Assembly: GCA_001563335.1 (NCBI GenBank)
Contig: LRSL01000095.1
Location: 1 to 64,000 of the forward strand
Origin: Candidatus Thorarchaeota archaeon SMTZ1-45
Lineage (GTDB): Archaea; Asgardarchaeota; Thorarchaeia; Thorarchaeales; Thorarchaeaceae
Length of the DNA: 64,000 bases
Direction of reading: 5' to 3'
The position numbers and the translations under genes were made by a program. The notes below the pieces were generated by a model that was not told the origin of the DNA, did not search any database, and saw nothing but the letters and a program-made list of their open reading frames with translations. Of the stretch, positions 2-60,041 are shown in pieces; positions within the stretch are counted from its first letter, which is position 1; each line of letters starts with the position of its first letter.

Positions 2-3000
2 TATGACAGCACTTACCTTGGAGCAACTGACTCTGTCACTCTCGATGGAACTGCAATGACCTGGGATAGTGTGAACTCCTGGTTTGATTTGCCTATATCA
101 CAAGCCTCAGTAGGCCTCTGGCAATATTTCGTTAACTCCTCCTCTGATGGAACCTATGGAATCACAGCACTCAACCTCAACTCACAAAGTGTCAGTGTGA
201 TTTGGGATAGAATTGTCGTACAGAGTACTGTGGTCGACGATGCAAGGGTTGACATATCTTCTAATGCTGAGATTCGAGTGACATTATTGCTGGAGTATGA
301 CAGTACCTTCCTTGGAGCTGGTGACTCTGTTATCCTCAATGGCACTTCAATGATTTGGGATGGTGTCAACTCATGGTTCGAATTAATAGTGAGTCACTCT
401 TCTGTTGGTTCGTGGACTTACTTTGTGAACTCAAGCTTGGATTCAACCTATGGAATTAGTTTGTTAAATCTAAATGGAAACAGTGTCAGTGTGATTTGGG
501 ACAGACTGCAGGTCCTTTCATATTCTGTTGGTGATGCGCGGGTCAATATTGGTGATAGTGTAGATATTGATGTTTCACTAGTCTATGATTATGATAACAC
601 ACCAGTGTCAGATGGTACAATCACTGTGAATGGGATAGCAGCAACTCATCAAGGGGCTGGCATTTGGAGATTTACTGACTCTGAAGTTGTAGTTGTAATG
701 AACACCTATGACGTAGTAGCCAGTGTAGGAAATACATATGGGCTCACCATTATAGACCAAAACTCTCGATCAATGAATGTAATCTGGGATCAATTAATAG
801 TCATAATTGGTGTTGACGATGCTTCCTCATTGAACGGTCATCAGGCTAACTTCACTCTCACAGTGACATACGACTATGATGATGTTGTCTGCACAACATA
901 TCAAATCGTGATTGACCGGAACGCATCGTGGTGGCATACATTCCTCGATGCCAACGTGTCCCTCTTTGTTGATAACAACACTAACACTACATACTTATAC
1001 AATGCAAGCCTTGTGTCAGGGGAATCTACGTATGGCATAACTGCGTTCACTACGAACACCTTGCAGGTGACCTGGTCTTTAGCTCCTAATGAGATTCCAG
1101 TGAATGATTCAAGTCCTGTTCTCACAAACGGTGATGATACTGACTATCTCTTTGCTCGATATCGTTACTATGTGATAACCTCATCAGTAAGCGACCTTGA
1201 TGGATACGCTGACATGAGCTATATAGAGTTGACACTTTATTCTGATGATCAGCTAACTCAATACTGGATAATCCGATACACCGTTGGTACCGGTATATTC
1301 TCTGTAGAGACTGGTGGGACGAATGTGGTTATTGGTGCTATGTCTAGCGCTGTAGGTGTTGGTAACACACTCACCATAACTTGGTGCATCAAGATTGGTT
1401 GGAATCATCCAGACATTCTAGACTCTGACATCAATCAGTATATTACTGACGGAACTGCCAGTGACTCCGATTTCTATGAGACCAATTGGAATGTTGAAAC
1501 TCGTCTAGATTATTCAATCGTCCCAGCTCTGTCTGATGACCGTGGAGATGTCAACACTGCAGACTTGATAGGTTCAGGTTCTGTCACGTACTATGGTTCA
1601 AGTCTAAGTCCTCTCTCCAACGAAACTGATGTTTGGGTTGTTCACGATCTTGCTGGGTCCTGGAGTGGAGAGCTCGTGGCTGGCAGTTTCAGCATTTCCA
1701 CTATCGGATCTGCATCAATAGTCCGAATGAACACCTACACATTCAAGATTGTTGTTGAGGGTACTGGTGCAGTTGGCACAGACCTCTATTACACAACTAG
1801 TCTTACTGATACTTTCATTACAGACAGAATTGAGATATACGAGGCTGGGATTGTTGACAGTCGAATTAATATTAACTCGGATTGTGAGGTCTGGTGGAGA
1901 GCAAGATACGAGTACGATAGCACTGAGATACAGAGTGGATTGATCATCGAACTCAATGGGTCAAGAACACTCGTTTGGGATGCTGGTAACCTCTACTGGA
2001 GGTGGCGAGAAACTTCAATCAGTCCTAGCTTTGCTGGATTCGAGATCGCCACTGCTAGTGAATCGACATATGGGTTAACAGCATGGTTTAACACAACTTC
2101 TGCACAACAGGCAATTTGGGACTCCCTCGTCATCACAATAACCGATCCTATTGACCAAAGAATTAATGTTGGTGCAAACGCGAGTGGTATTTTTGTCAGT
2201 GCAGTCTATGCATTTGATGGGGCTCCCTATGATGGAAATCTCATTTTGAACAATACTAACTTCCAATATTCATCTCCGCAGATTCAAGGGTATACAGTGA
2301 TTAGTTGTTCTGGCGACTCATATGATATCACTGTAATCGGAATCAATGATGAAGCATTTTGTATTTGGGATAGAGTCTTGATCGTTTCAGTCAATGCTGA
2401 TGAGATTTATCATGACCCGAACGATGATGTTATGATAACTATCGAGCTCCAGTATGAATATGATGGTCTGCCAGTTACAGCTGGTACGTTCGAAATTACT
2501 AGCTATCCTCTTGCTCACATTGGTTTAGGAGTCTGGGAAGCGCAGATCACCATAGTCACATTTCAAACCATTGACTTTAATGATCTGACAATTTGCAATG
2601 CAACACTCTATGGAATCAACGAATACAACATGAATAGTAATACTGTCACTGTATATTGGGACCGTCTTGGTTTCTATCAAGCTGCAGTGGGTGATGGCAG
2701 AATCAATGTTGGGACTTCAACCACTATCCAATGGAGTGTGCAGCTAGAATATGCCGGTATTTCAATCACATCTGGACTAACGGCTCTTATGACTGGTGAT
2801 ATTGCACTCACACCCTCAGCTGGTGTCTATACTGGCTCTGTTAGTGAGAGCATTGTTGGAAGTATTACTTACAGCATTCTGAGCGCTTCACTCGGAGAGA
2901 TCAGTCAGTTCAATCAGAGTGTATCTGATATCACTGTTATTTGGGATCAAGTCTTGCTGACTTCTATCATAGCCACAACTCTATCACTAGACGTTGGCAC

Positions 3001-3880
3001 TTCGACTGAAATTCGAGTAACGTTGGTATACGAGTTCGATTCTGCTGAGGTCACTGATGGTATGGTCTATATGAATGACAATGGAGCTTCTATAGCAATG
3101 ACCTATAACTCAGCTGGAGGATACTGGAGTGCTTCAGTTTCAAAGAACACAGCGGGCAACTACAGCTTCACAGTTGATAGTGTATCAGGAAATGCCTATG
3201 GAATCACAGCGCTTGATACAGATGATTTGAGCGTGGAGGTTGAGTGGGTTGGAGCACCTGGATTTGTACTTGACACAATGACACTGATGATTATTGGTGG
3301 TGGAGCAGGTATCGGTTTACTTGGTGTGGCAATAATTGCTTCACGACGAAGGAAGGGTGGAGTTGTTACTGATCTTGCTGCAATCGAACCTAGCGACCTA
3401 GAAGTTACTGAACCGGTCGAAGCAGAAGTTCCTATTGAACCGGAAATTTCCGAACCTGAGGTTGAAGAGATTGAACCCTCGGAGCCGGAAACAGTAGAGG
3501 AGCTGGAGATTGAAGCTGAAACAGTCGCTGAAGCAGTTGAACCTGAGGAGGTTGAACTTCCTCCGTTTGATGAAGAACTTGCTGAGCTAGAAATAGAAGA
3601 ACCGGTCATTGAGGCGGAGCCTGAACTAGAGGTTGATGAAGTACCTGAAATCATCGAGGAGCCTGTCATTGAACCTGAAGCAGAACCTGAATATGCTGAT
3701 ATCCCAGAGGAGTTCATTGAACCTGAGCCTGTTGTCGATCTGACAAAATTGACTAAGAAGGAACTCCTTGATCTCATCCCAGATGACATTAAGGAAACCA
3801 CATCGCCCAAGGAACTCAAACGACTAACGAAGCAGGAACTGATAAGCCTAGTCGAATCCTTCAAGAGCTCTAAAGATTAA
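2..3880 (+). CDS. Large membrane-anchored surface (S-layer/Ig-like repeat) protein, 5'-truncated by the window edge
   Basis: The frame is open from position 2 (YDSTYLGATDSVTLDGTAMTW...), so the true start lies upstream. It has beta-rich repeats (YGI..., V(I/V)WDR, RINV), many NxS/T sequons, a TM helix (LMIIGGGAGIGLLGVAIIA-SRRRK), a Glu/Pro-rich tail and a short C-terminal helical motif. Confidence 0.8.
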   Translation, partial: YDSTYLGATDSVTLDGTAMTWDSVNSWFDLPISQASVGLWQYFVNSSSDGTYGITALNLNSQSVSVIWDRIVVQSTVVDDARVDISSNAEIRVTLLLEYDSTFLGAGDSVILNGTSMIWDGVNSWFELIVSHSSVGSWTYFVNSSLDSTYGISLLNLNGNSVSVIWDRLQVLSYSVGDARVNIGDSVDIDVSLVYDYDNTPVSDGTITVNGIAATHQGAGIWRFTDSEVVVVMNTYDVVASVGNTYGLTIIDQNSRSMNVIWDQLIVIIGVDDASSLNGHQANFTLTVTYDYDDVVCTTYQIVIDRNASWWHTFLDANVSLFVDNNTNTTYLYNASLVSGESTYGITAFTTNTLQVTWSLAPNEIPVNDSSPVLTNGDDTDYLFARYRYYVITSSVSDLDGYADMSYIELTLYSDDQLTQYWIIRYTVGTGIFSVETGGTNVVIGAMSSAVGVGNTLTITWCIKIGWNHPDILDSDINQYITDGTASDSDFYETNWNVETRLDYSIVPALSDDRGDVNTADLIGSGSVTYYGSSLSPLSNETDVWVVHDLAGSWSGELVAGSFSISTIGSASIVRMNTYTFKIVVEGTGAVGTDLYYTTSLTDTFITDRIEIYEAGIVDSRININSDCEVWWRARYEYDSTEIQSGLIIELNGSRTLVWDAGNLYWRWRETSISPSFAGFEIATASESTYGLTAWFNTTSAQQAIWDSLVITITDPIDQRINVGANASGIFVSAVYAFDGAPYDGNLILNNTNFQYSSPQIQGYTVISCSGDSYDITVIGINDEAFCIWDRVLIVSVNADEIYHDPNDDVMITIELQYEYDGLPVTAGTFEITSYPLAHIGLGVWEAQITIVTFQTIDFNDLTICNATLYGINEYNMNSNTVTVYWDRLGFYQAAVGDGRINVGTSTTIQWSVQLEYAGISITSGLTALMTGDIALTPSAGVYTGSVSESIVGSITYSILSASLGEISQFNQSVSDITVIWDQVLLTSIIATTLSLDVGTSTEIRVTLVYEFDSAEVTDGMVYMNDNGASIAMTYNSAGGYWSASVSKNTAGNYSFTVDSVSGNAYGITALDTDDLSVEVEWVGAPGFVLDTMTLMIIGGGAGIGLLGVAIIASRRRKGGVVTDLAAIEPSDLEVTEPVEAEVPIEPEISEPEVEEIEPSEPETVEELEIEAETVAEAVEPEEVELPPFDEELAELEIEEPVIEAEPELEVDEVPEIIEEPVIEPEAEPEYADIPEEFIEPEPVVDLTKLTKKELLDLIPDDIKETTSPKELKRLTKQELISLVESFKSSKD

Positions 3881-18685: not shown

Positions 18686-21601
18686 TTGTTTAATGAAGAC
18701 GCCATCACATCGGAGAGTAACATAACTAATGCATATCATGCAATGCCTCTTGAGGAAGTCCTAGCGAGTCTTCAGGTTGATCCTGAAGAGGGGTTGACCG
18801 CTGATGAGGTAAAATTAAGGACCCAGAAGTATGGTCAGAACGCGATACCAAAAATTCGTGGTCCGTTTTGGCAAGTCTATATTGCTCCTATTATGAACTG
18901 GTTGATTACTATCTATATACTCAGCTCCTTTGGACTTATCATAATCGCACAGTTACTTCCTCCAGGTCAGAATGAGATGGGGCAGGCTTTGGTCTGGTTG
19001 GGGATTGTAACAGTTAATGCTCTTGTGGCTATCTTTCAACAGTATCGGGCACAGAAGAAATTGGAGGCTCTTGAGAAACTCTCAGCAGGAGAAGCTCGTG
19101 TCATTCGTCAAGGATCAGAAACTGGCATTCCTCCATTTGAGATAGTCCCCGGTGATATCATAAAACTAGATTCAGGTGACAGAATTCCATCTGATGCAAG
19201 AATAATCAGCTCATCAAATCTTACTACTAATGAGGCATCCCTGACAGGTGAGAGTGTGCCAGTGGCAAAGGAAGAGGTAGTTCTTGGTAAGCGTGAATTA
19301 CCACTCACAGACATGAGGAATATGGTGTTCTTTGGAACTTATGTTTCAACAGGAATGGCAACTGTGGTGACTACTGCGACTGGAGGTTTTACAGAGATCG
19401 GGAAAATCCAGGGAACCCTTGAAGCATTGAATACTGGTGATATACCACTCAGAAGGAAAGTGAACCTTCTAGCCAAATATCTTGGAATCGCTGCATTAAT
19501 TTTGATGAGTGTGTCGGTTCTGTGGCAAGTCTTTGTATATGATTGGCTCAACAGTCAACCCCTCGACTTGGGTTTTGAGAATATACTGCGACAGACGCAA
19601 GAGGCAATCACTCGCGCCATGACCATCATGCCAATCAACATACCACTTCTAACGACAATTGTTTTGCTAACTGGTGTCTTGGCCATGGCAAAGAAAGGTG
19701 TCATCATTAGAGACCTTTCCGCTGTGGAAAGTCTCGGTCGAGTAAGTGTCATATGCAGTGACAAGACTGGAACCATGACTCGCAATCAGATGACTGTCAA
19801 GTATTGTTGGGACACACACAACATGTATTCAATCAAGGGAGATGGGTACGACCCTACAGGTGGCATCTATCTTTTGAAAGGCGCTGATGATGTTGTTACA
19901 CTTGAGGTCAATGAAGAAAAAGTACAGGATGTCTTCAAATGGAAGGGTCTCTTCCGCCTTATTGTCTGCGGTGGTATCAATAATGATTCTGAGATTGTCA
20001 AAGAAATAATACCAGGCCAGGGTGAAATCTGGAAACCATTAGGAGATCCCACAGATGCTGCTTTGCTTACATTGTTTCGCAAGAGCGGGATTGATGAGGA
20101 AGTTGTTACTAAGAAATATGAAATAGTTGAGGAGTTTCTATTTGAATCTGAGCTTAAACGAATGACCAAAATCTGTAAGGATGGCAAGAAGTTTGTTTCT
20201 TTTACCAAAGGCGCAACAGAAGTCCTCTTACCAAAATGCACAATGGTGGACGGAAAGGAGTCTCCTACAAAGATAACACCTGATACTGTTAACAAGGTTC
20301 GGATGCTCACTACCGATTTTGCCTCGAAAGGATATCGTATCATCTCACTTGCATATCGGCAATTGGACAAGATACCTACTGGTAAAGATGCTCGAGATGA
20401 AACCGAGAATGATCTCATCTATCTTGGATTCGCTTGTATTGTTGACCCACCAAGGGAGGGCGTGAAAGAGGCGGTTGCAGCCTGTCATAGCGCAGGTATC
20501 AATGTTATAATGATCACTGGAGATGCAGCAGCTACTGCGAAAACCATCGCAGAAGACCTTGGTATCTTTGCCCCAAACTCATTGGTTGTTGAGGGCAATG
20601 AAATCGATGATGTATCAGATGAAGATTTTGCTAGAACCAATGTTTTTGCACGAGTAAATCCGGATCATAAACAAATCATTGTCGAACGATATCAGGATCA
20701 ACAGCGTGTTGTTGCTATGACTGGTGATGGAGTCAATGACGCACTCGCTCTTGCTATGAGTGATGCTGGTATAGCCATGGGCATCACAGGGACAGATGTG
20801 GCGAAGGAAGCAGCTGACCTTGTAATAACGGATGATAGTTTTGCATCAATTGTTTCAGGTGTGCATCAAGGGAGAGGTCTCTTCAACAAGATACGCATGA
20901 TGATATATTTCTACATTGCAATCAACTTGTTTGAGAGCATGATTTTCTTCGGAGCCTTATTCTTCCTTCCAGACACAATTACCATGTTATCAGTATGGCA
21001 AAGTATCTACTTGGTTGTGACAACTCACTCGTTCCCTGGACTAGCACTTGTTTTTGATAGAACATCGCCATACGCTATGGAAGACAAACCGCGTGATAGT
21101 CAAGCGCTCATCACACGCAACCTGGGAAAGTTCATGGCATTGAATGTCATTCTCATGACACTTGGAGCAGCAGCAGTCTATATGCTCACCCTCACTGAGT
21201 GGGGTGGTATTGTCGAAGTCTATCCAGAAAACCTCACTGGTTACTACGGAGCCATTGTTGACTCTCCATACAAAGCTACTGTTATGCTTCTCTCATTGAT
21301 TCTACTTGTTGAGAGCACTATTGTCCTCAGTATACGTAGAATCAACATGCCTATACAGCGGGGCCTCAGAGAGCCTGGAACCTGGATCTTTGTAATTCTA
21401 CTAGGTCTAATTTATCTAGCTCACTATCTCCTCATGTATGTACCACTCGCACAAGAAATCTTGACAATATATAATCTAGATTTCTATTTCGCACCACTCA
21501 CCATGTATGATTGGTTCATTGTCCTTCTTGGGGCTTTGCCATCTATGGTTGGCGTTGAGCTGTACAAATGGCGTTTCAGGAAGCAGGACATTGACCTATA
21601 A
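18686..21601 (+). CDS. P-type ATPase, P2A-like scaffold with atypical ion-binding motifs
   Basis: LTGES, CSDKTGT, GDPTD, KGA, DPPR, MITGD and TGDGVND all present; TM4 reads MPINIP instead of IPEGLP. Confidence 0.93.
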   Translation: MFNEDAITSESNITNAYHAMPLEEVLASLQVDPEEGLTADEVKLRTQKYGQNAIPKIRGPFWQVYIAPIMNWLITIYILSSFGLIIIAQLLPPGQNEMGQALVWLGIVTVNALVAIFQQYRAQKKLEALEKLSAGEARVIRQGSETGIPPFEIVPGDIIKLDSGDRIPSDARIISSSNLTTNEASLTGESVPVAKEEVVLGKRELPLTDMRNMVFFGTYVSTGMATVVTTATGGFTEIGKIQGTLEALNTGDIPLRRKVNLLAKYLGIAALILMSVSVLWQVFVYDWLNSQPLDLGFENILRQTQEAITRAMTIMPINIPLLTTIVLLTGVLAMAKKGVIIRDLSAVESLGRVSVICSDKTGTMTRNQMTVKYCWDTHNMYSIKGDGYDPTGGIYLLKGADDVVTLEVNEEKVQDVFKWKGLFRLIVCGGINNDSEIVKEIIPGQGEIWKPLGDPTDAALLTLFRKSGIDEEVVTKKYEIVEEFLFESELKRMTKICKDGKKFVSFTKGATEVLLPKCTMVDGKESPTKITPDTVNKVRMLTTDFASKGYRIISLAYRQLDKIPTGKDARDETENDLIYLGFACIVDPPREGVKEAVAACHSAGINVIMITGDAAATAKTIAEDLGIFAPNSLVVEGNEIDDVSDEDFARTNVFARVNPDHKQIIVERYQDQQRVVAMTGDGVNDALALAMSDAGIAMGITGTDVAKEAADLVITDDSFASIVSGVHQGRGLFNKIRMMIYFYIAINLFESMIFFGALFFLPDTITMLSVWQSIYLVVTTHSFPGLALVFDRTSPYAMEDKPRDSQALITRNLGKFMALNVILMTLGAAAVYMLTLTEWGGIVEVYPENLTGYYGAIVDSPYKATVMLLSLILLVESTIVLSIRRINMPIQRGLREPGTWIFVILLGLIYLAHYLLMYVPLAQEILTIYNLDFYFAPLTMYDWFIVLLGALPSMVGVELYKWRFRKQDIDL

Positions 21602-27040: not shown

Positions 27041-30000
27041 TTGGAGTCAAGAGATCATGAGAGACCGAATTATACAGTAGATGAAGCACACGATATTGTC
27101 AAATCACTCTATGGTTTCTCGAGTGAGATTGTAGAACTACCAAGCGAACGAGATCAGAATTTTCACGTTATTGCAGATACAGGTGAAGAGTATGTTCTGA
27201 AGATTGCAGCAGAATCAGAACGAAGAGAAACTCTTGAGATGCAGAACAGCGCCATGCACCATCTCTCAACTGCTCATGGTAAGATCAATTCTCCAAAGAT
27301 CAAAAAAAGCATCAGTGGTCTTGAGATTGAAACAAGCACTCGAGATCGAACAACTCATTTTGTCAGGCTCGTATCGTATCTTCCAGGTAGGGTTTTTGCT
27401 CAAGTCAATCCTCACACACCAGAACTACTTCTTGACCTCGGACGATTTGTGGGCTCAATCAGTAAATGTCTTGCTGATTTTGATCACCCCGCCGCTCATC
27501 GTGAATTCTATTGGGACTTGAAAAACGCAAGTTCGGTAATTAGGAAAAATAAAGAAATCATCACTGAAGATAATAAAAGGGAGCTTGTTGATTACTTCTT
27601 GCATCTCTTTGAATCCCTAGTTTTTCCTAAGTTGAAGGAACTGAAGAAAAGTGTCATTCATAATGATGCAAACGACTATAATGTGATCGTTAATCGTCCA
27701 CATGACGAAGATTCACGCTCTTTTGGAATCTTAGACTTCGGAGATATGGTGTATTCCTATACTATTAATGAACTTGCTATAGCAATCGCATATGCAATAC
27801 TTGACAAACCTGATCCAATAAGAGTTGCTCAGAAGATTTTGTCTGGCTATCATGCTATATTTCCACTGTCAGTAGTTGATTTAGAACTGTTGTATCCCCT
27901 TGTCTGTACACGATTATCTATGAGTGTGTCAATCGCTGCACATCAACAACAACTTGAACCTGACAATGAATATCTTAGCATTAGTCAAAAACCTGCATGG
28001 AAAACGCTGACAATACTCAAGGAGATACATCCTCGATTTGCATCATATTGCTTCAGAGCTACTGTTGGTCTTGAACCATGTCAGAATTCTAAAGTTGTAG
28101 TGGATTGGATTAAAAATAATCAAAAGCAATTTGGTAGTCCTCTTGGGATGCCTATTGATGGAAAAAATAGTATTGTATTAGATCTAAGTGTAGGCAGCTT
28201 GGATGTAACTTCACCTCACCACCTCGCAGATCACAGAACCTTTGGAGATCTGATCAACAAGAAACTAAGGGCTGCTGGGGTCGACATAGGTGTCGGTAGA
28301 TATGATGAGCCCCGTTTGATTTATACTGGTGACCAATATATTGCATTTAACGGAGAGAAACGCACGGTTCATCTTGCTATGGACCTCTTCGTTGATAGTG
28401 GCACTCCAGTATTTTCAGTCTATGATGGGACTATCCATAGCTTTCAGGACAACGCTCTACCATTAGATAATGGACCAACCATTGTTATTGAGCACACGAC
28501 AACTCCAGATGTTCCACCCTTCTACATCCTCTATAGCCATCTGACTCGAGATTCACTTGAAGGACTGTCTATTGGAGAACATATCAAGAAAGGGCAGCAG
28601 ATTGGACGTGTTGGTGAATATCCCGATAATGGTGGGTGGCCTCCCCATCTTCATTTCCAGCTAATTGTAGATATGATGGATGAGAAAGGAGATTTTTATG
28701 GTGTTGCTCCACCTAGCAAACGTGATGTCTGGTTAAGCATATGTCCGAATCCCAACTTGATTCTTCAGATTCCCGCAAATATGTTTCCAGAACCAGACCT
28801 ATCCAAGAATGAAATCTTGGAGATTAGAAGTAAGTCAATTGGGCTTTCTCTAAGCGTTTCATACAGAAAACCTCTGAACATAGTTCGAGGATTCATGCAG
28901 TATCTCTATGATGAAACTGGTCGCGAGTATCTAGACATCCGCAACAATGTCCCTCAGGTTGGTCATAGTAATCCCCGAGTAGTGAAAGTGCTTAGTCAAC
29001 AAGCGGCAGTCCTAAACACGAACACTCGATATCTGCATCAAAATCTCGCGCTGTACGCAAAGCGATTGACAGCGAAACTACCCACAGACCTCAGTGTCTG
29101 TTTCTTTGTTAATAGTGGGAGTGAAGCAAATGAGCTTGCATTGAGATTGGCTCGAACCCATACCCGTCAAAAGGATGTTATTGCTATCAGAGGAGCCTAT
29201 CATGGAAACACAGCCGAGCTTATAGACATTAGTTCATACAAGCATGATGGTCCTGGCGGTGAAGGTTCACCTTCACATGTACATATCGTGAGAATGCCAG
29301 ACACGTATCGCGGAGAATACAAGGGTTCTGATGCAGGAAAGAAGTTCGCAGAAGACATTCTTAAGGCGACTAAGAGGATTAAAGAAGATGGTCGGGGTTT
29401 CGCTGCCTTTATCTGTGAGCCACTTATGGGCTGTGGTGGTCAGATTGTTTTCCCCAGAGACTATCTAAAAGAAGCATTCAGATATGTCCGTGAAGCTGGT
29501 GGGGTTTGTATTGTGGATGAGGTGCAAGTGGGTTTTGGAAGAATGGGCGATTACTTCTGGGGGTTCGAAACTCAAGGAGTCGTTCCAGATATTGTAACGA
29601 TGGGCAAACCAATTGGTAATGGTCATCCGATTGGAGCTGTGGTCACGACTCGCAAGATAGCAGATTCATTCACTACTGGTATGGAGTTCTTTAGTACAAC
29701 AGGCGGTAACACTGTTTCGTGTGCAGTAGGAATGGCTGTCTTGGATGAGATAGACCAAGAAAATCTGCAAGGGAATGCCAAGGACGTGGGGACATATTTA
29801 CTCAAAGGCTTGAAGAGTTTAATGAAAGCTCATCCAATCATTGGAGATGTCCGTGGATTTGGTCTCTTTATTGGTGTTGAACTCGTTCGAAACCGTGAAA
29901 CCCTAGAACCTGCGAGGGAGGAAACTAAGTATGTTGTGGAACGTTTTTGTGAACTTGGACTTCTCATCAGTGTTGATGGCCCTCTTCAAAATGTCCTCTT

Positions 30001-30106
30001 GATTAAGCCACCTTTGGTCTTCAATAAGGATAATGCCAATAGGTTAGTTGAAACACTAGACACAGTCCTTCGGGAAGATCCGATAACTCACTGTCAAGAA
30101 GAGTGA
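27041..30106 (+). CDS. Fusion: hydroxylysine-kinase-like phosphotransferase + M23 peptidase-like domain + class III PLP enzyme (phospho-lyase-like)
   Basis: Kinase [21 protein letters not shown]; M23 HLAMD and PHLHFQ; aminotransferase [31 protein letters not shown]. Confidence 0.9.
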
Positions 30107-43654: not shown

Positions 43655-44806
43655 ATGACTGTTGCTGTTGTTGGTGTTGGATATACTGATTTTCGAAGTG
43701 CAACTCCCGACGTTACATTCAAGGAACAGATGTTTGAAGCTGCTGTCAAGGCTTACACCGATGCTGGCGTAAGTCCTAGAAAAGACATTGGTAGCTTCAT
43801 CACAGGGGCTGAGGACTACTGGGAAGGCTACTCAATCTTCGACGAGTTTGTGCCTGACCAGCTTGGTGCCACTCTCCGTCCGGTCTGTACAATAAGTGGA
43901 GATGGACTGCAAGCTTTGATGACAGGAGTCATGCAGGTAGAAACTGGGATGTTCGATATTGTGGCAATCGAAGCACATAGCAAGGCATCTGACATGCTTT
44001 CATTCACAGGGATTGTAAGCCATGGACTTGATCCAGTTTATAATCGAAGCATGAATGTGAGCCCCTTCTTTGTTGCAGGGCTTGAGATGAGAAAGTATCT
44101 CTCTGAGACAAAGACAACTAGGGAGCAATGTGCACGAGTTGTAGTTAAGAACAAGAAGAATGCGTTGGACAATCCCTTGGCAGCATATCCAGCTAGTATG
44201 TCTGTTGATGAAGTGATGAACTCTGAGATGGTTTCTGACCCATTGTCTCGACGAGACTTAAGTCCCTTAGCTGATGGAGCCATTGTTTTTGTACTTGCCT
44301 CTGAGAAGAGGGCAAAGGAGCTCTCGGATTATCCCATCTGGTTGAAGGGACTGAGCTGGATCTCAGAAACACCGTGGTTGGAGTCACGAAACTGGAGTGA
44401 AGCCACTTACGCCAAGCTCGCATCGAAAAAGGCTTACAAGATGGCAGGTATCATAGATCCCAAGAAACAACTGGATCTTGTAGAGGTTGATGACTGGTTC
44501 TCATACAAAGAGCTTCAACATCTTGAAGCAATTGGAATATGTGAGAAAGGTCAGGCTGGGAAACTACTTGAACAAGGTAAATTTGACAGAAACGGAGAAA
44601 CTCCCGTCAATGTGTCAGGTGGGCGATTGGGAGCCGGCAACCTCCTAGAAGCCTCCTCACTGCAGTCAGTTCTTGAATGCGTGCTGCAGCTTCGAGGTCA
44701 TGCAGGAAAGAGGCAGATTAAGAACGCCCGGACAGCAGCTGCTCAATCATGGCGCGGAATTCCAACAGCCACTGGTAGCATGCTGATTCTTAGCAATGAG
44801 AAGTAG
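43655..44806 (+). CDS. Thiolase-like (SCP-x type) protein lacking the catalytic Cys
   Basis: Thiolase fold (KNKKNALDNP, SPLADGA, PVNVSGG); no ACASG nucleophile motif, and the HD motif reads EVDD. Confidence 0.85.
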   Translation: MTVAVVGVGYTDFRSATPDVTFKEQMFEAAVKAYTDAGVSPRKDIGSFITGAEDYWEGYSIFDEFVPDQLGATLRPVCTISGDGLQALMTGVMQVETGMFDIVAIEAHSKASDMLSFTGIVSHGLDPVYNRSMNVSPFFVAGLEMRKYLSETKTTREQCARVVVKNKKNALDNPLAAYPASMSVDEVMNSEMVSDPLSRRDLSPLADGAIVFVLASEKRAKELSDYPIWLKGLSWISETPWLESRNWSEATYAKLASKKAYKMAGIIDPKKQLDLVEVDDWFSYKELQHLEAIGICEKGQAGKLLEQGKFDRNGETPVNVSGGRLGAGNLLEASSLQSVLECVLQLRGHAGKRQIKNARTAAAQSWRGIPTATGSMLILSNEK

Positions 44807-44819
44807 GAGGAGATGAAAG

Positions 44820-45983
44820 ATGACAATAAAGAGAAGAGTTGCAGTCATTGGAGCTGGCATCACACTGTTCAGAAGAAGGTTGAAAGAAACTGGGAAAGAA
44901 CTCTCCTACCATGCATCGAAGATGGCATTGGATTCTGCAGAGATGAACCTCAGTGAGATTGAGAGTGTTGTGATGGGAACCGCGCCCGACGCGTTCGATG
45001 GAATTCACATGAAATCGGAGAACCTGCTTGATGGAGCAGGAGGAACCGGACGACCCTATATGCGCCCCTTTGTGGGTGGTGGTACTGGTGTGTTTGCACC
45101 CATTGCTGGATGGTGGCATGTAGCTTCAGGTCTTTATGATACATGCCTGGTCGTGGCTGAAGAGAAAATGAGTCCAGTACAACCACATCCCCAGACCGCC
45201 TTTCGTACTATCTGGGACCCAATCATCACGAGACCGCTTCAACCTAATCTTGTCTGGATCTTCGCCCTCGAGATGAACCGATACATGACGAAACACAACA
45301 TCCCAAAGGAGCACATCGCTGAGGTTGCAGTTAAGAATAAGAGCAACGCCCTGGACCATCCCAGTGCTCAACTAGCAGCAAAGATTACTGTTGAGGACGT
45401 AATGAACTCAGAAACAATGGTCTGGCCAGTGCAACGACTGGATATCAGTCCACCAAGCGATGGAGCTGCAGCATTGGTTCTGGCATCTGAGGAGGTCGCC
45501 AAAAAATACACCGACTCGCCAGTCTGGATTGATGGTGTGGGTTGGTCACTCGATAGTTCGTACTGGACAAATCGAGACCTATACTACCCTCAATACGTTG
45601 AGGAGGCTGCAAAAATGGCCTACAAGATGGCAAAAATTGATGACCCACCCAACCAGGTATCCTTCGCTGAACCATATGATCCGTTCACCTACAAAGAGCT
45701 TCATCACATGGAAGGGCTTCTCTTGGCAAAGAAGGGAGAGGCACCAAAACTCACCCACGAGGGAGTAACTCAACGTGATGGAAAACTACCGATTTGTCCA
45801 TCTGGTGGTCTACTTGGCGTTGGTAACCCAATAGCCGCTGCTGGATTGATGAAGTGCTGCGAGGCATTCTGGCAACTGCGAAATGAGGCTGGGAAACGAC
45901 AGGTCGATGGAGCAGAGACCGGTGTGTGTCAAGCATGGGGAGATCTCATGCAGGTTGGTACAGTGACAGTGTTCAGGAGATGA
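44820..45983 (+). CDS. Thiolase-like (SCP-x type) protein, probable aldolase subunit
   Basis: KNKSNALDHP, SPPSDGAAA, CPSGGLL; the nucleophile loop reads VGGGTG with no Cys; EPYDPFT carries Tyr. Confidence 0.85.
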   Translation: MTIKRRVAVIGAGITLFRRRLKETGKELSYHASKMALDSAEMNLSEIESVVMGTAPDAFDGIHMKSENLLDGAGGTGRPYMRPFVGGGTGVFAPIAGWWHVASGLYDTCLVVAEEKMSPVQPHPQTAFRTIWDPIITRPLQPNLVWIFALEMNRYMTKHNIPKEHIAEVAVKNKSNALDHPSAQLAAKITVEDVMNSETMVWPVQRLDISPPSDGAAALVLASEEVAKKYTDSPVWIDGVGWSLDSSYWTNRDLYYPQYVEEAAKMAYKMAKIDDPPNQVSFAEPYDPFTYKELHHMEGLLLAKKGEAPKLTHEGVTQRDGKLPICPSGGLLGVGNPIAAAGLMKCCEAFWQLRNEAGKRQVDGAETGVCQAWGDLMQVGTVTVFRR

Positions 45984-54432: not shown

Positions 54433-57237
54433 ATGGTTTTAGATGCTAAACACAAAAGAATGGCATTCACGCTTCTATGCCTGCTTGTGTCTAGCACAAT
54501 TTTCTCGAGTTTCTTGATTTTCATCGACTCATATTCCTACAACATTTGGGACTACGAAACTGATGTGGGGCCGGCATCGATGGTGATTCTTGGTTCAGAA
54601 GGACTAGACTTCATTGATGAGATTCTAGCACTACCAGAGATTAATAGAGTTTCATCGCTCAAAACATCAATGGCATCTGTTATTGCATATCCTCCTGAAT
54701 ACAATGCCTCATTCGCTTGTTCAGAAGCCATGATTGAAAATACAAATGGTTACACTATTCAAGGCCCCTTAGATGAGGTATCAAATAGGACTATTAGAGT
54801 GGGATATATCGATGAAACATTTCAGGATAATTTCCCTTCAATCATAAATATAACAAGTGGAAAATTGCCTGAGAGTGACTCAGAAATTGCATTTTCAGAA
54901 TGGTTGGCTAGTATCTTCCAAGTGACAGCAGGAGATATTGTAAGTTATGAACATGGTGTGAATAATCCACACTATTCAACTCTCCGTCTTGTAGGAGTCT
55001 ATTCACAAGATGAGGCGGATACAAGAAGCGGTCATTATTATAGACTTGCAGATGCTGTAGTTCCTCCAGCGCTCTTGACCAACGATAGTCGAGAAGACTA
55101 TCTTTTCTTGGATGTAGAACCCCGTCATCATCCATTAATCCCCTCTACTGGAGTTTCTTATCTAGCCGATATCGAAGAAAAAATCAGAGAGCTTGATCCC
55201 CAATACAGTTTATTTCATCATACATCGTTCTACATTGATGATATCTTAGCCAAAGGAATCATTAGGTATCAAGCTTGGCTCTTGTCTACAAGGTTTCAGC
55301 AATCTACTAGAATTATTGGTTTCATATTTTTTGCTCTAGTTTTCGCGGGATTTGGAATTAGATATAACATAAAAGACAAGAAGACAGAGATTGAGATGCT
55401 TAGAGCAAGAGGGGGTTCGAGCGCTCAGATTACCTTGTTATATCTTCGAGAGTTACTATTTCTTGGAGTTTTATCAACTATTATTGCTGTGGGCCTTGGC
55501 TTTTCGATAAGCAGAATCGGTTTCGCGACTATAGGATTCTTTCATTTTGAGCAATTAGTTACTAGTCCATTTCTGCTTTCACTCGATTCTATTATTATCT
55601 TGATCATATTGAGTATAGTAGTCCCTTTGAGCCTGTATTCGATTCTTCATAACAATTCGAATATTGTTACAAAAGGATCTATTGGTTTTGGAGGTCATGC
55701 AAAATTAGCAAGACTAGTGCGGTTGTTTCGTTGGGACATTTCATTATCACTAGTTTCACTTGTAATTCTCCTGAGTATCTGGGGATCAAATAGTCTAATC
55801 ACTCAGAGTTCTATCTTTTCTCTTCTCTCATATGTTACCCCATTTACATTTTTCATTGGACTTGCAGGTATGATATCCAGATCATTAAAGATTAGCTCAA
55901 ATTGGCTCTCTTCAAGACTCAGAAAACCAATTGGAAAACTTGCTTCTGGATTGGGAATAAGACGAATAAGCTCGAATGTGTCGACTTCTGGTACAACAGT
56001 ACTAATCCTTGCCTTAGCAATCAGCCTTGCTTGGAATGGTGCTGTTTTCGAGGTCACATTGCCCAATACAATACTCAATCAAACGAGATTTGCAATAGGC
56101 GGAGATTTAACACTCCGGTTAGAAGATGATAGTAGGGACCTCTGGGATGATTTATTCCAAAACGTAACTGAGAGTCCAATAGTGGAAGGACTTTCAATCG
56201 TCACAACCTATGGACTCTCACTGTCTTCAGAAATGCAAAATCTTGTTGAGTTTGTATCCATAGAACCAATGCTGTACGCTGATGTTGGTTATGACTCACT
56301 CGGTGCTCCATTAGCACAATCAAACTTAATGCCTTCACTTTCTATACTAGATAAGAATCCAACTGGAGTTATCATGACTTCTGATATAGCAAGGAGTTAT
56401 GGGTTGTCTGAGGGTGACACACTTAGAGCCTTTCGTGCCAATGGGTCAGAAGTAGATACGCTAATCTTTAACATTCTCTCTATTGTTGAATCTCTACCGG
56501 ACTCTATGGTTGGACCTGATGGCTACACACCGCCTCCATTGGGCTCTTCTGATAGAGTTGGTCGTGGTCAAATCTGGATGCATATACAACATGCTGAAAC
56601 GGTATTTCTGCATAACTCCTCTATAGCAACGACTCTATGTGTTCGAACGCGTGAGGGTGCAAATGGACAAGAACTTGTGGATGCAGTTCTTGACTCCAAT
56701 CTGGCAGATGCCATCTTGGGGTATGCAGTTGCGAGTGTAATAGCAGAACAGTCATCACTGCAAAATCTGTTTATCTTCGAGAGTTCTATCGATACAATTC
56801 TTATAATCATAGCATTGGGTTCAATACCAGTTGCATTTCTCATGCACTTCTATGAACAATTCGAAGACAAAAGAAAGGAATCAGCCCTTTTGAGGGCAAT
56901 TGGAATGGAATCTATGCAATTACACAAGTACCAAATGATAGAAACACAGAGTGTTGCTCTATATGGCATACTTCTCATTACTTTAGGATCTCCCATTTTA
57001 ATAACAACTTCATTGAACGTGTCAATGTATAATTCGCCAATCGCGTTTAAGGCATTCCCATATCCGATTCTTCTCTCAATCCCTTGGATTCCTCTAGTGA
57101 TTCTAATAGCCTACTTAGTTCTATGCGCGGGTGCAATAGGATTCATCGTTTCTTTTCTTAACGTTAAGAAAACTATTGGTAAAGTAACTAGAGACATCTG
57201 GTTAGATAGCTTAAACAATAGGGGGCAAACCGAGTGA
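54433..57237 (+). CDS. FtsX/MacB-like ABC transporter permease
   Basis: EIEMLRARGGS and ESALLRAIGM FtsX motifs, IGGDL, two large extracellular loops. Confidence 0.85.
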   Translation: MVLDAKHKRMAFTLLCLLVSSTIFSSFLIFIDSYSYNIWDYETDVGPASMVILGSEGLDFIDEILALPEINRVSSLKTSMASVIAYPPEYNASFACSEAMIENTNGYTIQGPLDEVSNRTIRVGYIDETFQDNFPSIINITSGKLPESDSEIAFSEWLASIFQVTAGDIVSYEHGVNNPHYSTLRLVGVYSQDEADTRSGHYYRLADAVVPPALLTNDSREDYLFLDVEPRHHPLIPSTGVSYLADIEEKIRELDPQYSLFHHTSFYIDDILAKGIIRYQAWLLSTRFQQSTRIIGFIFFALVFAGFGIRYNIKDKKTEIEMLRARGGSSAQITLLYLRELLFLGVLSTIIAVGLGFSISRIGFATIGFFHFEQLVTSPFLLSLDSIIILIILSIVVPLSLYSILHNNSNIVTKGSIGFGGHAKLARLVRLFRWDISLSLVSLVILLSIWGSNSLITQSSIFSLLSYVTPFTFFIGLAGMISRSLKISSNWLSSRLRKPIGKLASGLGIRRISSNVSTSGTTVLILALAISLAWNGAVFEVTLPNTILNQTRFAIGGDLTLRLEDDSRDLWDDLFQNVTESPIVEGLSIVTTYGLSLSSEMQNLVEFVSIEPMLYADVGYDSLGAPLAQSNLMPSLSILDKNPTGVIMTSDIARSYGLSEGDTLRAFRANGSEVDTLIFNILSIVESLPDSMVGPDGYTPPPLGSSDRVGRGQIWMHIQHAETVFLHNSSIATTLCVRTREGANGQELVDAVLDSNLADAILGYAVASVIAEQSSLQNLFIFESSIDTILIIIALGSIPVAFLMHFYEQFEDKRKESALLRAIGMESMQLHKYQMIETQSVALYGILLITLGSPILITTSLNVSMYNSPIAFKAFPYPILLSIPWIPLVILIAYLVLCAGAIGFIVSFLNVKKTIGKVTRDIWLDSLNNRGQTE

Positions 57238-60041
57238 ATGTATTGAGTCGGCTTATATCAGATGCCCCACAGGTTCTTGCGACACTTCTTATTTTCTCAT
57301 TATCAGCAGGAGTTTTTGGTGGAGTTCTAATATACATGGATAGTGCTGGGCCTTATGTGTTGACTGAAATGGCTGATGATGCACCAATTCATATGGTGGT
57401 GGATTTCACAGATTATTTCTATGATCAGGATCAATTCACTTCAACTGATATTATTGAAATAATTGAGTCTCAGAATGGAATTCATAACGCTGAACATCTT
57501 CTTATAATTGACGCATCATTTGGCAATCTTCTTTGGACATCTTATTTCAAGAGGTATGTATACCTAGGTGTTGGCGAGTCCTTCTTTGATGAATTCTCTG
57601 ATGCTATACAATTACCTGAGGGGACACCTGCTCTAACTGATAATGCCTGCTACCTAGAGAGAAGCATCTTTGAAGGAGCGAATATCAGTATTGGCGATTA
57701 TTGTAACATATCAGTCGTTGTAGATATACCTTGGTGGAATGAGGTGGTTTTGGAAAGTCGTGAGTTCCTTGTGTTAGGCACATTTGAAACTGACCTGTGG
57801 GGCTCAATCGAGATTGAAGGTCACATCTATCCTAATTTGAGAGCAATTCTAACCAAAAATGCATTGCAATCTCAATTTGGTTTTGTTGGAATCGGAGAGA
57901 GGAATGGAATCATTGACAGTATTTGGGCAAAGTTTGATAATGCATTCCTTCAGTATTTCAATCCCTCTGAAGCCGAGGAGAATCTTCTGAATGCCAGGAG
58001 GAAAATAGAACAAAAAACAGCACCATTAGCGATTATTGGTGAGTATAAAGCTCTAGGTATTGTGCGTGGCTATTCAAGCTGGCAAAGTAGCATGACATCA
58101 ATCGCAATTGCATTCTCAATACCCACATTAGTCATGGGGATCATACTTGTTCACTACTCTACCAAACTTCTTTCTGATAGGCTTCGCCGCGACGTAGGCA
58201 TGTTGAGAGTCAGAGGCGCCAGTGGACGTCAATCACTCTGGTGGGTTCTAAGCACGACCACATTCACTGGTATAGTAGGAGGAATAGGTGCGATTCTCAT
58301 AAGTACATTAGCTGCAGTTCTATCCGGATCGGTTAGAGAGTTGTTCGTTTTTGATCCACTAGCAGAATTTGGCATCGTTCTACACTCCGCTGCAGTAATT
58401 GCTGTTTTTCTCTTCTCATTTTTCATTGGTTTTGTAGCATCAACAGCATCAACAATCAGGGTATTGCTTATGATGCCAACCAAGACACACGATGAGATGG
58501 AAACAGAAACATCAGAGAGTGAATACATGACCAACCCTTTTGTGGATGTTATTGCCCTCATTTTCTCTGGGATTGTATCTATGCAGTTACTTCTCCTTCT
58601 GGGTCAAGGAATGAATGCAAGCTGGCAGATTTTAGGACTTGTAATCTTGATGATTGGCGTGTTTGTGGTTTCCTTCACTAGATTCCTATCTCGTTTCGCA
58701 GGACCAATCAAATATCGATTAATGGAAAGGATTCATCGGCGGCAGCTACTTGTAGGCACAAGAGTTGTGGGCAGAACAGCTAAGATGAAAATTAGTAGTG
58801 AAGCCCTTGGAGTGATGTTCATCGCATTGGTCTTTACTGCAGGTACATTTTCTGCAATTGCCTCAAGCACAGGATCTATGCAGATACGAAATCTAAGGTC
58901 ATTTGAAATTGGTGCCGACATTGTTGCAGAAACGCATCCATTTCAAAATAATTTCACTTTAGATATTTTCGATATGATATCTACTATTGAAGGAGTAAAA
59001 GAAGCCAGCGCTATGCTAGAGGTTCATGCAACAGTCCACTATTATACTGTAGGTCCTGTTATAACTATTCTTCATGACCGGGTGATAACAGTATATGGCG
59101 TGCAACCTAGTAAATGGGCCCATACTGCTTTTCTTCTTCCTTATTTTACTGCTGAACATGAACCTAAAGTTGCATTGGAGATAATCGAAGAGGAAGAGAG
59201 TAATGTCATATCATCATTCAAACCTGTATTAGGTTACAATATAGCTCCAGACGGTATGTACAGCAAGATCTATGGAGATCACATAGAGATTGACCTTCAA
59301 GATGGAATACCTGAAAACTACCTCAATTTGACTATAATAGATATTATGTCTGAAGACGAGGAGATAGATAGCGCAGCATATATGCCAGGATCTCCCGATA
59401 ATAGTGATTTTATCATAATGAATCTAGAGCTGCTACATGACCAACTGAATTCAACAAAAGTGAGTAGAATTTATGTCGATATTGAGGAGGGGGCAAATTA
59501 TACTCGAATAATGGATGACATTAAGAAAATAGCACCTTATAGCTTCTCCATAATCCGCTCCTCTTTACAGGCCATTGATGAGGTCTTTGATTCAAGAGGT
59601 GCAAGTACAATTCATGGAATCTACACATTGAATGTTCTTTTCTCTGTACTTTATTTGACAATAGGGATCTCAATTATAGCTGGTGATAAGAACCGCCTGT
59701 ACAGGAAACAATTTGCGATTCTACGAGCAATGGGGTCCGATTCCACCACAATTCAGTCAGCAATGCTATTTGATATTATAATCAATATCGTTTTGTCATC
59801 TGTGATTGGGATGGTGACTGGTCTAGTATTGAGCGGCATGGTCCTAGGAACGCCTCTAATGTATATGGGTGTATCAGAAACCTTGCCCTGGAATCATCTG
59901 CCTATTTCACTATCAATTCCGTTCATCCAGTTGGGAGGAGTATATCTTATTGGTTATTCTTTTCCCCTGATTGCCACGCTTCTTGTTACGAGAAGAAATC
60001 TTCGTAATGACATCGCTGAAAGATTGCAAGATGCTGATTGA
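57234..60041 (+). CDS. FtsX/MacB-like ABC transporter permease
   Basis: DVGMLRVRGAS, FAILRAMG and IGADI motifs; overlaps the upstream permease by 4 nt. Confidence 0.85.
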   Translation: MNVLSRLISDAPQVLATLLIFSLSAGVFGGVLIYMDSAGPYVLTEMADDAPIHMVVDFTDYFYDQDQFTSTDIIEIIESQNGIHNAEHLLIIDASFGNLLWTSYFKRYVYLGVGESFFDEFSDAIQLPEGTPALTDNACYLERSIFEGANISIGDYCNISVVVDIPWWNEVVLESREFLVLGTFETDLWGSIEIEGHIYPNLRAILTKNALQSQFGFVGIGERNGIIDSIWAKFDNAFLQYFNPSEAEENLLNARRKIEQKTAPLAIIGEYKALGIVRGYSSWQSSMTSIAIAFSIPTLVMGIILVHYSTKLLSDRLRRDVGMLRVRGASGRQSLWWVLSTTTFTGIVGGIGAILISTLAAVLSGSVRELFVFDPLAEFGIVLHSAAVIAVFLFSFFIGFVASTASTIRVLLMMPTKTHDEMETETSESEYMTNPFVDVIALIFSGIVSMQLLLLLGQGMNASWQILGLVILMIGVFVVSFTRFLSRFAGPIKYRLMERIHRRQLLVGTRVVGRTAKMKISSEALGVMFIALVFTAGTFSAIASSTGSMQIRNLRSFEIGADIVAETHPFQNNFTLDIFDMISTIEGVKEASAMLEVHATVHYYTVGPVITILHDRVITVYGVQPSKWAHTAFLLPYFTAEHEPKVALEIIEEEESNVISSFKPVLGYNIAPDGMYSKIYGDHIEIDLQDGIPENYLNLTIIDIMSEDEEIDSAAYMPGSPDNSDFIIMNLELLHDQLNSTKVSRIYVDIEEGANYTRIMDDIKKIAPYSFSIIRSSLQAIDEVFDSRGASTIHGIYTLNVLFSVLYLTIGISIIAGDKNRLYRKQFAILRAMGSDSTTIQSAMLFDIIINIVLSSVIGMVTGLVLSGMVLGTPLMYMGVSETLPWNHLPISLSIPFIQLGGVYLIGYSFPLIATLLVTRRNLRNDIAERLQDAD

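Follow-up and report, generated by a model that had tools for sequence, protein, structure and literature searches.

A 64,000-nucleotide stretch of contig LRSL01000095.1 from Candidatus Thorarchaeota archaeon SMTZ1-45 (hereafter the window) encodes, at 18686..21601 on the + strand, a 971-amino-acid P-type ATPase whose catalytic machinery is intact and whose membrane transport site has been rewritten. The protein belongs to a clade, here called the Asgard PxNxP/His clade, that is widespread, although not universal, in Asgard archaea. These pumps keep their motor, but an acid-base pair, E750 of transmembrane helix 5 (TM5) and H781 of TM6, now forms the core of their binding site, and we consider it reasonably likely that the pair marks the single transport site of a pump for a small inorganic cation other than Ca2+. 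A first reading of the window made from its letters alone (the sequence-only reading) had proposed an uncharacterised pump subtype with intact catalysis and a rewritten transport site, a proposal that the analyses below bear out.

The clade is a large, old and well-conserved branch: of the genomes sampled from the Asgard archaea, the closest archaeal kin of eukaryotes, two thirds contain it. If its substrate were identified, a textbook family would gain a further specificity, the conversion of a Ca2+ site could be followed, and the handling of ions or metals by Asgard archaea would become clearer. Literature searches for P-type or P4 ATPases in Asgard archaea, Thorarchaeota and archaea, and for the terms PEGL and FUPA, returned no description of it. 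In its available text, PMC7997004 goes no further than listing a ‘putative Ca2+ ATPase’ for Asgard proteomes, and the 2023 review by Palmgren (PMC10654040), which counts six families (P1 to P6) and expects further prokaryotic ones, does not use the word ‘Asgard’ in its available text.

The gene is an uninterrupted frame of 971 codons with a TTG start and an in-frame ATG at codon 20. Its product is identified as a P-type ATPase by five Pfam domains above their cut-offs (E1-E2_ATPase, Cation_ATPase_N, Cation_ATPase_C, Cation_ATPase and Hydrolase), by the general P-type model TIGR01494 (HAD-IC; 264.2 bits against a cut-off of 62.3) and by an AlphaFold2 (AF2) model. All three catalytic motifs are present: the A-domain dephosphorylation motif TGES (19244..19255, +), in which G188 and E189 are invariant among 31 clade representatives; the phosphorylation motif DKTGT with D359 (19760..19774, +, from translation of these coordinates); and the P-domain hinge TGDGVND (20720..20740, +), after which the clade continues with AL (L687, giving GDGVNDAL), whereas canonical pumps continue with AP. 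The dephosphorylation motif is of the P2/P3 type and not the DGET of P4 pumps and, in line with what the sequence-only reading had reported, no Lys was found in TM5 (residues 736-765).

The membrane helices tell a different story from the catalytic domains. In TM4, MPINIP (19628..19645, +) places P316 where the helix would unwind, I317 at the position of SERCA E309 and N318 at that of G310. In TM6, QSIYLVVTTHSFPGLAL (20999..21049, +) carries V777 at the N796 position, T780 at T799 and H781 (21026..21028) at D800. Two site-I ligands are kept in TM5, where NLFE (20924..20935, +) supplies N747 and E750 as the equivalents of SERCA N768 and E771, and a third is found in TM8, where E876 (21311..21313, +) takes the E908 position. 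Finally, the TM1-TM2 entry-funnel region (18887..19042, +) has P68 (18887..18889) in place of the canonical Gln and Q119 (19040..19042) in place of a canonical Glu, a position that, in our own register, we take to be that of SERCA E109. HMMER alignment to the Listeria pump LMCA1 (9euq/6zhf) sets P-I-N-I of TM4 opposite P-E-A-L, and ‘ylvvtthsfp’ of TM6 opposite ‘finlvndslp’, with V-V-T-T-H facing N-L-V-N-D; the same TM4 and TM6 register is recovered when MAFFT aligns the protein with 99 canonical P2A-type rows. The replacements at E309, N796 and D800 (by I, V and H) and the retention of the TM5 N..E pair and the TM8 Glu, all of which the sequence-only reading had claimed, thus hold both letter for letter and in the alignments.

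Conservation of the motif among orthologues had been named beforehand as one test on which that reading could fail, and it does not fail there. Across the query and its 120 best matches (66-92% identity; where named, proteins from Thorarchaeota or Promethearchaeota metagenome-assembled genomes), MTIMPINIPLLTT is found in 120/121 proteins, with one miss, and the TM6 His likewise in 120/121, again with one miss; judging by these alignments, the substitution pattern is far beyond chance. In a HMMER search of 1.84 billion cluster representatives, the relatives grade from 1327 down to about 500 bits, where a plateau of ordinary PEGL pumps begins, and those in the best-150 alignment have in common P-[IVLFW]-N-[ILF]-[PVI] in TM4, N..E in TM5, His at the D800 position and the TM8 Glu.

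Site by site, we compared 56 clade rows with the 99 canonical rows (counts are of the listed residues only). The clade reads I47 V3 F3 W2 at position 317 (E309), against E98 in canonical rows, and N49 S3 M2 T2 at 318 (G310), against G93. The TM5 positions agree, with N52 against N95 at 747 (N768) and E56 against E93 at 750 (E771). TM6 differs throughout: F21 Y10 V9 I5 against N96 at 777 (N796), T14 A13 V13 I5 against T94 at 780 (T799), and H55 against D94 at 781 (D800). Position 876 (E908) is E in 51/56 clade rows, against Q57 E35. In the entry funnel, Pro occupies position 68 of TM1 in 93% of clade rows where 89% of canonical rows have Gln, and Gln occupies position 119 at the end of TM2 in 91% where 96% of canonical rows have Glu. 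In a second row set, E750 is present in 61/61 and H781 in 60/61 clade rows, which makes them the sole near-invariant residues of the site; by comparison, the 3 loci of GTDB family f22 all have Ile at E876, and family f5 has M, S or T at N318. The alignments point to strong constraint on the site residues, even between proteins that share only about 35% identity.

Placement and distribution of the clade

The closest relatives of solved structure are LMCA1 (1e-116), SERCA1a (about 1e-104) and SPCA1. Against the NCBIfam subfamily models, in contrast, the query protein remains below every cut-off, scoring 440.2 bits (cut-off 798.3) with the PMR1 type (TIGR01522), 401.6 (703.4) with the SERCA type (TIGR01116), 397 (645) with P2D, 381 (507) with PMCA, 309.5 (615.5) with P3A (TIGR01647), 309 (611) with P3B, 213 (618) with P5 and 98.3 (431.25) with P4 (TIGR01652). 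The AF2 model (predicted local distance difference test, pLDDT, 83.1; predicted TM-score, pTM, 0.73) shows the TM4 helix broken at 315-317, at P316. All 47 Foldseek matches listed for it (ranks 1-50) are P2 pumps, namely SERCA, SPCA1, LMCA1 and Na,K-ATPase (TMq 0.57-0.75), with no P4 or P5 chain among them, and a search of the ESM Atlas returned generic cation-ATPase clusters only. Public records carry the automatic name Ca2+-transporting ATPase, a label that is probably wrong.

In a FastTree phylogeny of 131 full-length rows, the clade forms one group of 31 rows with a Shimodaira-Hasegawa (SH)-like support of 100. We then used IQ-TREE (LG+G4) on 41 rows and 861 columns, rooted on the two P1B pumps of the window's genome and taking in Asgard P3B pumps as well as archaeal P3A pumps that exceed the TIGR01647 cut-off; the relation of the clade to eukaryotic P2B, P2C, P2D, P4 and P5 pumps is judged from profile scores and fold. 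This tree recovers the clade as monophyletic (99/100), the main canonical P2A group (96/98) and a pairing of P3A with P3B (95/93), and it places the clade, on a stem of 0.3 substitutions per site, as sister of the main P2A group with moderate support (72/85). One divergent PEGL paralogue from the same genome falls outside both the clade and the P2A group (58/45). In an approximately unbiased (AU) test on the same 41 rows, a tree constrained to join the clade to P3 is worse by 7.7 log-likelihood units but cannot be rejected (p-AU 0.165), so that the placement beside the Ca2+ pumps is the best one but not secure; an earlier quick-tree AU test on 57 rows, in which the constrained clade+P3A tree beat the free tree, is superseded by this analysis. 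The reading that agrees best with the trees is therefore that the clade is an Asgard-restricted sister branch of the P2A Ca2+ pumps, a position that is not secure.

The threshold for counting clade members in genomes was checked by hmmsearch with a clade profile: 56 clade rows, including the 31 on which the profile was trained, scored 1036-1350 bits, and 97 rows with a PE motif scored 669-889 bits. Canonical pumps of five non-Asgard genomes reached 657-862 bits. A threshold of E<=1e-150 was not clade-specific (282/301 genomes) and was replaced by E<=1e-285. At this threshold, with two candidates scored per genome and many genomes incomplete, the clade is present in 203/301 genomes of the window's own phylum, in 69/90 high-quality genomes, in 51/70 genera and in 13/30 GTDB families (for instance f1 58/76, f9 64/68 and f5 24/28). 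The remaining 17 sampled families yielded no member (for instance f27 0/11, f20 0/7 and f19 0/6), and neither did the two other archaeal phyla sampled (0/251 and 0/201 genomes), a sample that did not include the Thermoproteota with the Korarchaeia. Among 30 clade representatives that were looked up, 8 clusters carry names, of which 7 are Asgard (Promethearchaeota 4, Helarchaeota 2, Odinarchaeota 1) and 1 is Korarchaeota. A pattern search of genome contigs using the generic DKTGT and GDGVND motifs returned only generic P2A genes from many phyla, at 37% identity or less.

The clade gene is often present in two to four copies per genome (one f24 genome has four and another three), and tandem pairs are common in family f9. 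In the genome with four copies, G213, these lie on contig C1 at 244080, 839826, 1387574 and 3486975, and Loki-like families have tandem pairs at loci L101 (about 5.9-12 kb), L102, L103 and L106. Tandem copies come in two site types, N313/A751/F754/F777 and D313/G751/Q754/S777, the second of which adds polar residues near the old site II; this suggests a sub-functionalisation of the pocket.

Substrate and mechanism

We favour, with moderate confidence, the reading that clade members are single-site pumps for a small inorganic cation other than Ca2+, centred on E750 and H781. Pumping itself, the geometry of the site, the direction of transport and the ion are all matters that we infer, the pocket geometry being taken from alignment to SERCA numbering. 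The protein would run through an ordinary Post-Albers cycle. With the E309 equivalent replaced by Ile, that of N796 by Val (hydrophobic or aromatic across the clade) and that of D800 by His, Ca2+ site II is abolished; the sequence-only reading had predicted this loss, and these residues indeed do not allow a canonical two-site or site-II Ca2+ mechanism. The pocket left at the old site-I position would comprise E750 and N747 (TM5), H781 (TM6), usually E876 (TM8) and the new N318 (TM4). In each cycle, one small inorganic non-Ca2+ cation would be carried on E750. H781 might be a metal ligand, but by analogy with the pumps with in-built counter-ions named below we favour a role in which it would stand in for a counter-ion or shuttle a proton while E750 carries the ion.

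Two versions of this single-site reading differ in the ion. The first, which we put forward tentatively, is that the pump moves H+ or a monovalent cation with the His as in-built counter-ion. Since E750 and H781 form a near-invariant acid-base pair, a proton or in-built counter-ion mechanism would fit, and the neutralised entry funnel, with Q119 in place of the canonical Glu, would likewise fit H+ or a monovalent cation. The second version, which we regard as rather doubtful, has the His act as a ligand for a borderline divalent metal (Mn2+, Fe2+, Co2+, Ni2+ or Zn2+). A His together with carboxylates is the chemistry of transition-metal sites, and the metal-ligand option is consistent with this chemistry and with two metal-related neighbouring genes. 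Precedents for in-built counter-ions are described in the available text of PMC10654040, which names a Lys in P1B-2, P3A and P4A pumps, Lys-586 in KdpB and a His in P1B-4 pumps.

Several observations weigh against the single-site reading or one of its versions. A simple proton-pump role is weakened because true P3A pumps co-occur with the clade (45/301 genomes); the neutralised entry funnel would speak against a divalent metal; and the T799 position varies so much that the clade has not simply kept the old site I. The metal- and lipid-related neighbours, moreover, are few and point both ways, and we treat them as anecdotes.

The alternative that the proteins are still Ca2+ or Ca2+/Mg2+ pumps is unlikely. 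One Ca2+ would then bind at a modified site I made of N747, E750, E876, N318 and backbone carbonyls, and H781 would only tune affinity or pH dependence. The nearest relatives in sequence and fold (LMCA1, SERCA and SPCA1), the retention of the N768, E771 and E908 equivalents, and the automatic name in public records all agree with such a pump. However, E309 and D800, which are E in 98/99 and D in 94/99 canonical rows, are replaced; the query protein stays below every NCBIfam Ca2+-ATPase cut-off (440/798, 402/703 and 381/507); and the genome already has two canonical pumps. An imidazole nitrogen is also a poor Ca2+ ligand. Furthermore, according to the available text of PMC4937031, the known one-site Ca2+ pumps, PMCA and SPCA, keep site II, which is the reverse of the situation in the clade.

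It is similarly improbable that the clade constitutes a separate, Asgard-born family (a ‘P7’ in the counting of PMC10654040) in which the Glu-His site would carry a class of substrate that is new for P2-like pumps. Candidates would be transition metals, or else non-ionic or bulky molecules let in by the hydrophobic lining of TM4 and TM6. If this were true, the site-diversified paralogues of the Loki-like families would record an early archaeal experiment in substrate change, like the later origin of the eukaryotic P4 and P5 pumps.

Quite improbable is a flippase-like or ‘large substrate’ pump, in which a lipid head group or an organic molecule such as a polyamine would move along TM1-2-4-6 past a hydrophobic TM4 gate. 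The Ile at the PEGL Glu position resembles that of the P4 PISL motif (PMC4937031, available text), the N796 position is hydrophobic or aromatic (F21 Y10 V9 I5), the acidic entry funnel is neutralised, and two lipid-related genes, of the YhhN and VTT/DedA families, lie near clade ATPases at L098/L100 and L104. The sequence-only reading had taken the Glu-to-Ile exchange in TM4 as the hallmark of flippases, which it is not, because archaeal P3A proton pumps are likewise hydrophobic there, reading IPVALP in 10/10 cases; the available text of PMC4937031 also gives Ile or Val at this position in P3-ATPases. Several further points tell against a flippase: the protein has TGES and not DGET, its TM5 is without Lys, the P4 and P5 models score far below their cut-offs (98 vs 431 and 213 vs 618 bits), P4 and P5 chains are absent from the 47 fold matches listed, no subunit-like neighbour recurs in 38 loci from 11 families, the lipid-related neighbours are confined to single genera, and a buried, invariant pair of Glu and His is the usual mark of an ion site. 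Of the proposal by the sequence-only reading that the substrate is something other than Ca2+, possibly a lipid or organic molecule, the first half is probable and the second, to which only the two isolated lipid-related neighbours point, is improbable.

Finally, that the proteins are non-transporting, ATP-hydrolysing sensors, scaffolds or regulators which have kept the catalytic cycle and lost their ion sites is very improbable: both classical sites are altered and transport-independent roles have been raised for some P4B pumps (PMC10654040, available text), yet the membrane-buried polar residues E750, H781, N747, N318 and Q772 are among the best-conserved positions of the clade, which would be unexpected for an unused pocket, and the gene copies have multiplied and diversified at pocket positions.

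Genomic context

Besides the PINIP gene, the window's genome (3.54 Mb, 88% complete) has genes for two canonical PEGL/NxxTD pumps, two P1B pumps and one P3B pump of the MgtA type (762 bits; cut-off 611), which makes the PINIP protein an extra, differentiated pump. The two canonical pumps and the P3B pump lie at G000:C92:4227-7013, C19:5383-7761 and C86:56865-59330, respectively; the PEGL paralogue on C19 is very divergent (branch length 1.0) and groups with neither the clade nor the main P2A pumps. The P3A pumps found among the Asgard genomes come mostly from families that also hold the clade, and no complementary distribution of the two was seen across the 301 genomes. In one genome of the window's genus, a P3A match (963 bits) at G272:C11:6953-9079 sits in a frame of 1731 amino acids, about twice the usual length, which may be a fusion or a read-through.

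In Thorarchaeal genomes the clade gene stands between an S8 protease gene and panB, an order that is not kept in other families. Among 38 loci from 11 GTDB families we found no gene partner conserved across families except a generic ATP-binding cassette (ABC) ATPase, and Pfam scans of 95 neighbours returned anecdotes only. The metal-related neighbours are a ZIP transporter gene two genes from the clade ATPase at L093 and, at L098, a repressor gene together with one for a nickel superoxide dismutase. At L098 (9051-12010; family f22), the ATPase gene is accompanied by genes for an alpha/beta hydrolase, an S26 peptidase, a Sod_Ni protein (1.7e-43) and a DtxR-type metal repressor, the last of a family also found near the ATPase in the other two f22 loci. 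A YhhN-family gene is directly upstream of the clade ATPase at L098 and one gene further upstream at L100, where an FAD oxidoreductase gene intervenes. At L104 (9112-11750; family f9), genes for a NUDIX-domain protein and a VTT/DedA membrane protein are located between two clade ATPase copies.

The window holds other features of note, all on the + strand where genes are concerned. A 1021-amino-acid open reading frame (ORF) at 27041-30106 joins APH-type phosphotransferase, M23 peptidase and class-III aminotransferase domains in an unusual fusion. Two neighbouring ORFs that overlap, with 934 and 935 amino acids (54433-57237 and 57234-60041), and one of 1274 amino acids (56-3880) are without Pfam match at 1e-8, and two tandem thiolase-like genes (43655-45983) occupy the window's stretch of highest G+C (0.487). 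An Rfam search of the window returned neither rRNA nor any other family.

Comparison with known P-type ATPase families

The P2A Ca2+-ATPases (LMCA1, 9euq/6zhf/6zhh; SERCA1/2; SPCA1/PMR1) are the best matches of the clade in both sequence and fold, and share with it the ten-helix P2 architecture, the Cation_ATPase_N and Cation_ATPase_C domains, TGES, DKTGT and TGDGVND, the TM5 N..E and the TM8 Glu. The clade departs from them in E309 to I, G310 to N, N796 to V, D800 to H, Gln to Pro in TM1, Glu to Gln in TM2 and the GDGVNDAL hinge; it branches outside the canonical PEGL group, and the query is under all curated cut-offs.

The P3A H+-ATPases, to which plant AHA2 and fungal Pma1 belong, are likewise hydrophobic at the position of the PEGL Glu, within a PxxxP TM4 (archaeal IPVALP against MPINIP), and both groups could plausibly work through one site that uses an acid-base pair. 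P3A pumps nevertheless keep the TM6 Asn and Asp (LNDAP), the Asp being their proton acceptor/donor, where the clade has a hydrophobic residue and His, and the best tree pairs them with P3B and not with the clade. The P3A score of the query is 309.5 against 615.5 bits.

The likeness to P4 flippases (ATP8A2, Drs2) lies in an Ile that immediately follows the TM4 Pro (PISL in P4, PINI here); the available text of PMC4937031 places the PISL Ile exactly at the PEGL Glu position. P4 pumps, in contrast, have DGET where P2 pumps have TGES (PMC4937031) and a TM5 Lys; the clade protein has TGES, is without the TM5 Lys and reaches 98 of the required 431 bits. As far as the available texts go, P4 pumps occur only in eukaryotes and mostly with a CDC50 subunit (PMC4937031, PMC10654040), although P4B pumps are without a CDC50-type beta subunit (PMC10654040). 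No recurrent neighbour resembling a CDC50-type subunit was found in the 38 loci from 11 families, a survey that did not seek a subunit encoded elsewhere.

P1B-4 pumps and KdpB have a basic residue in the binding site (His and Lys-586, respectively) that has been proposed as a counter-ion (PMC10654040, available text), a role that H781 could match. They are unrelated subfamilies with other topology and motifs, and their likeness to the clade would be functional only. Finally, the P6 pumps, represented by CtpE of M. tuberculosis, are P2-like, have the TM6 Asp replaced (by Ile in CtpE) and have changed in function, as described in the available text of PMC10654040; they keep PEGL in TM4, whereas the clade has PINIP, and the TM6 residue of the clade is His and not Ile.

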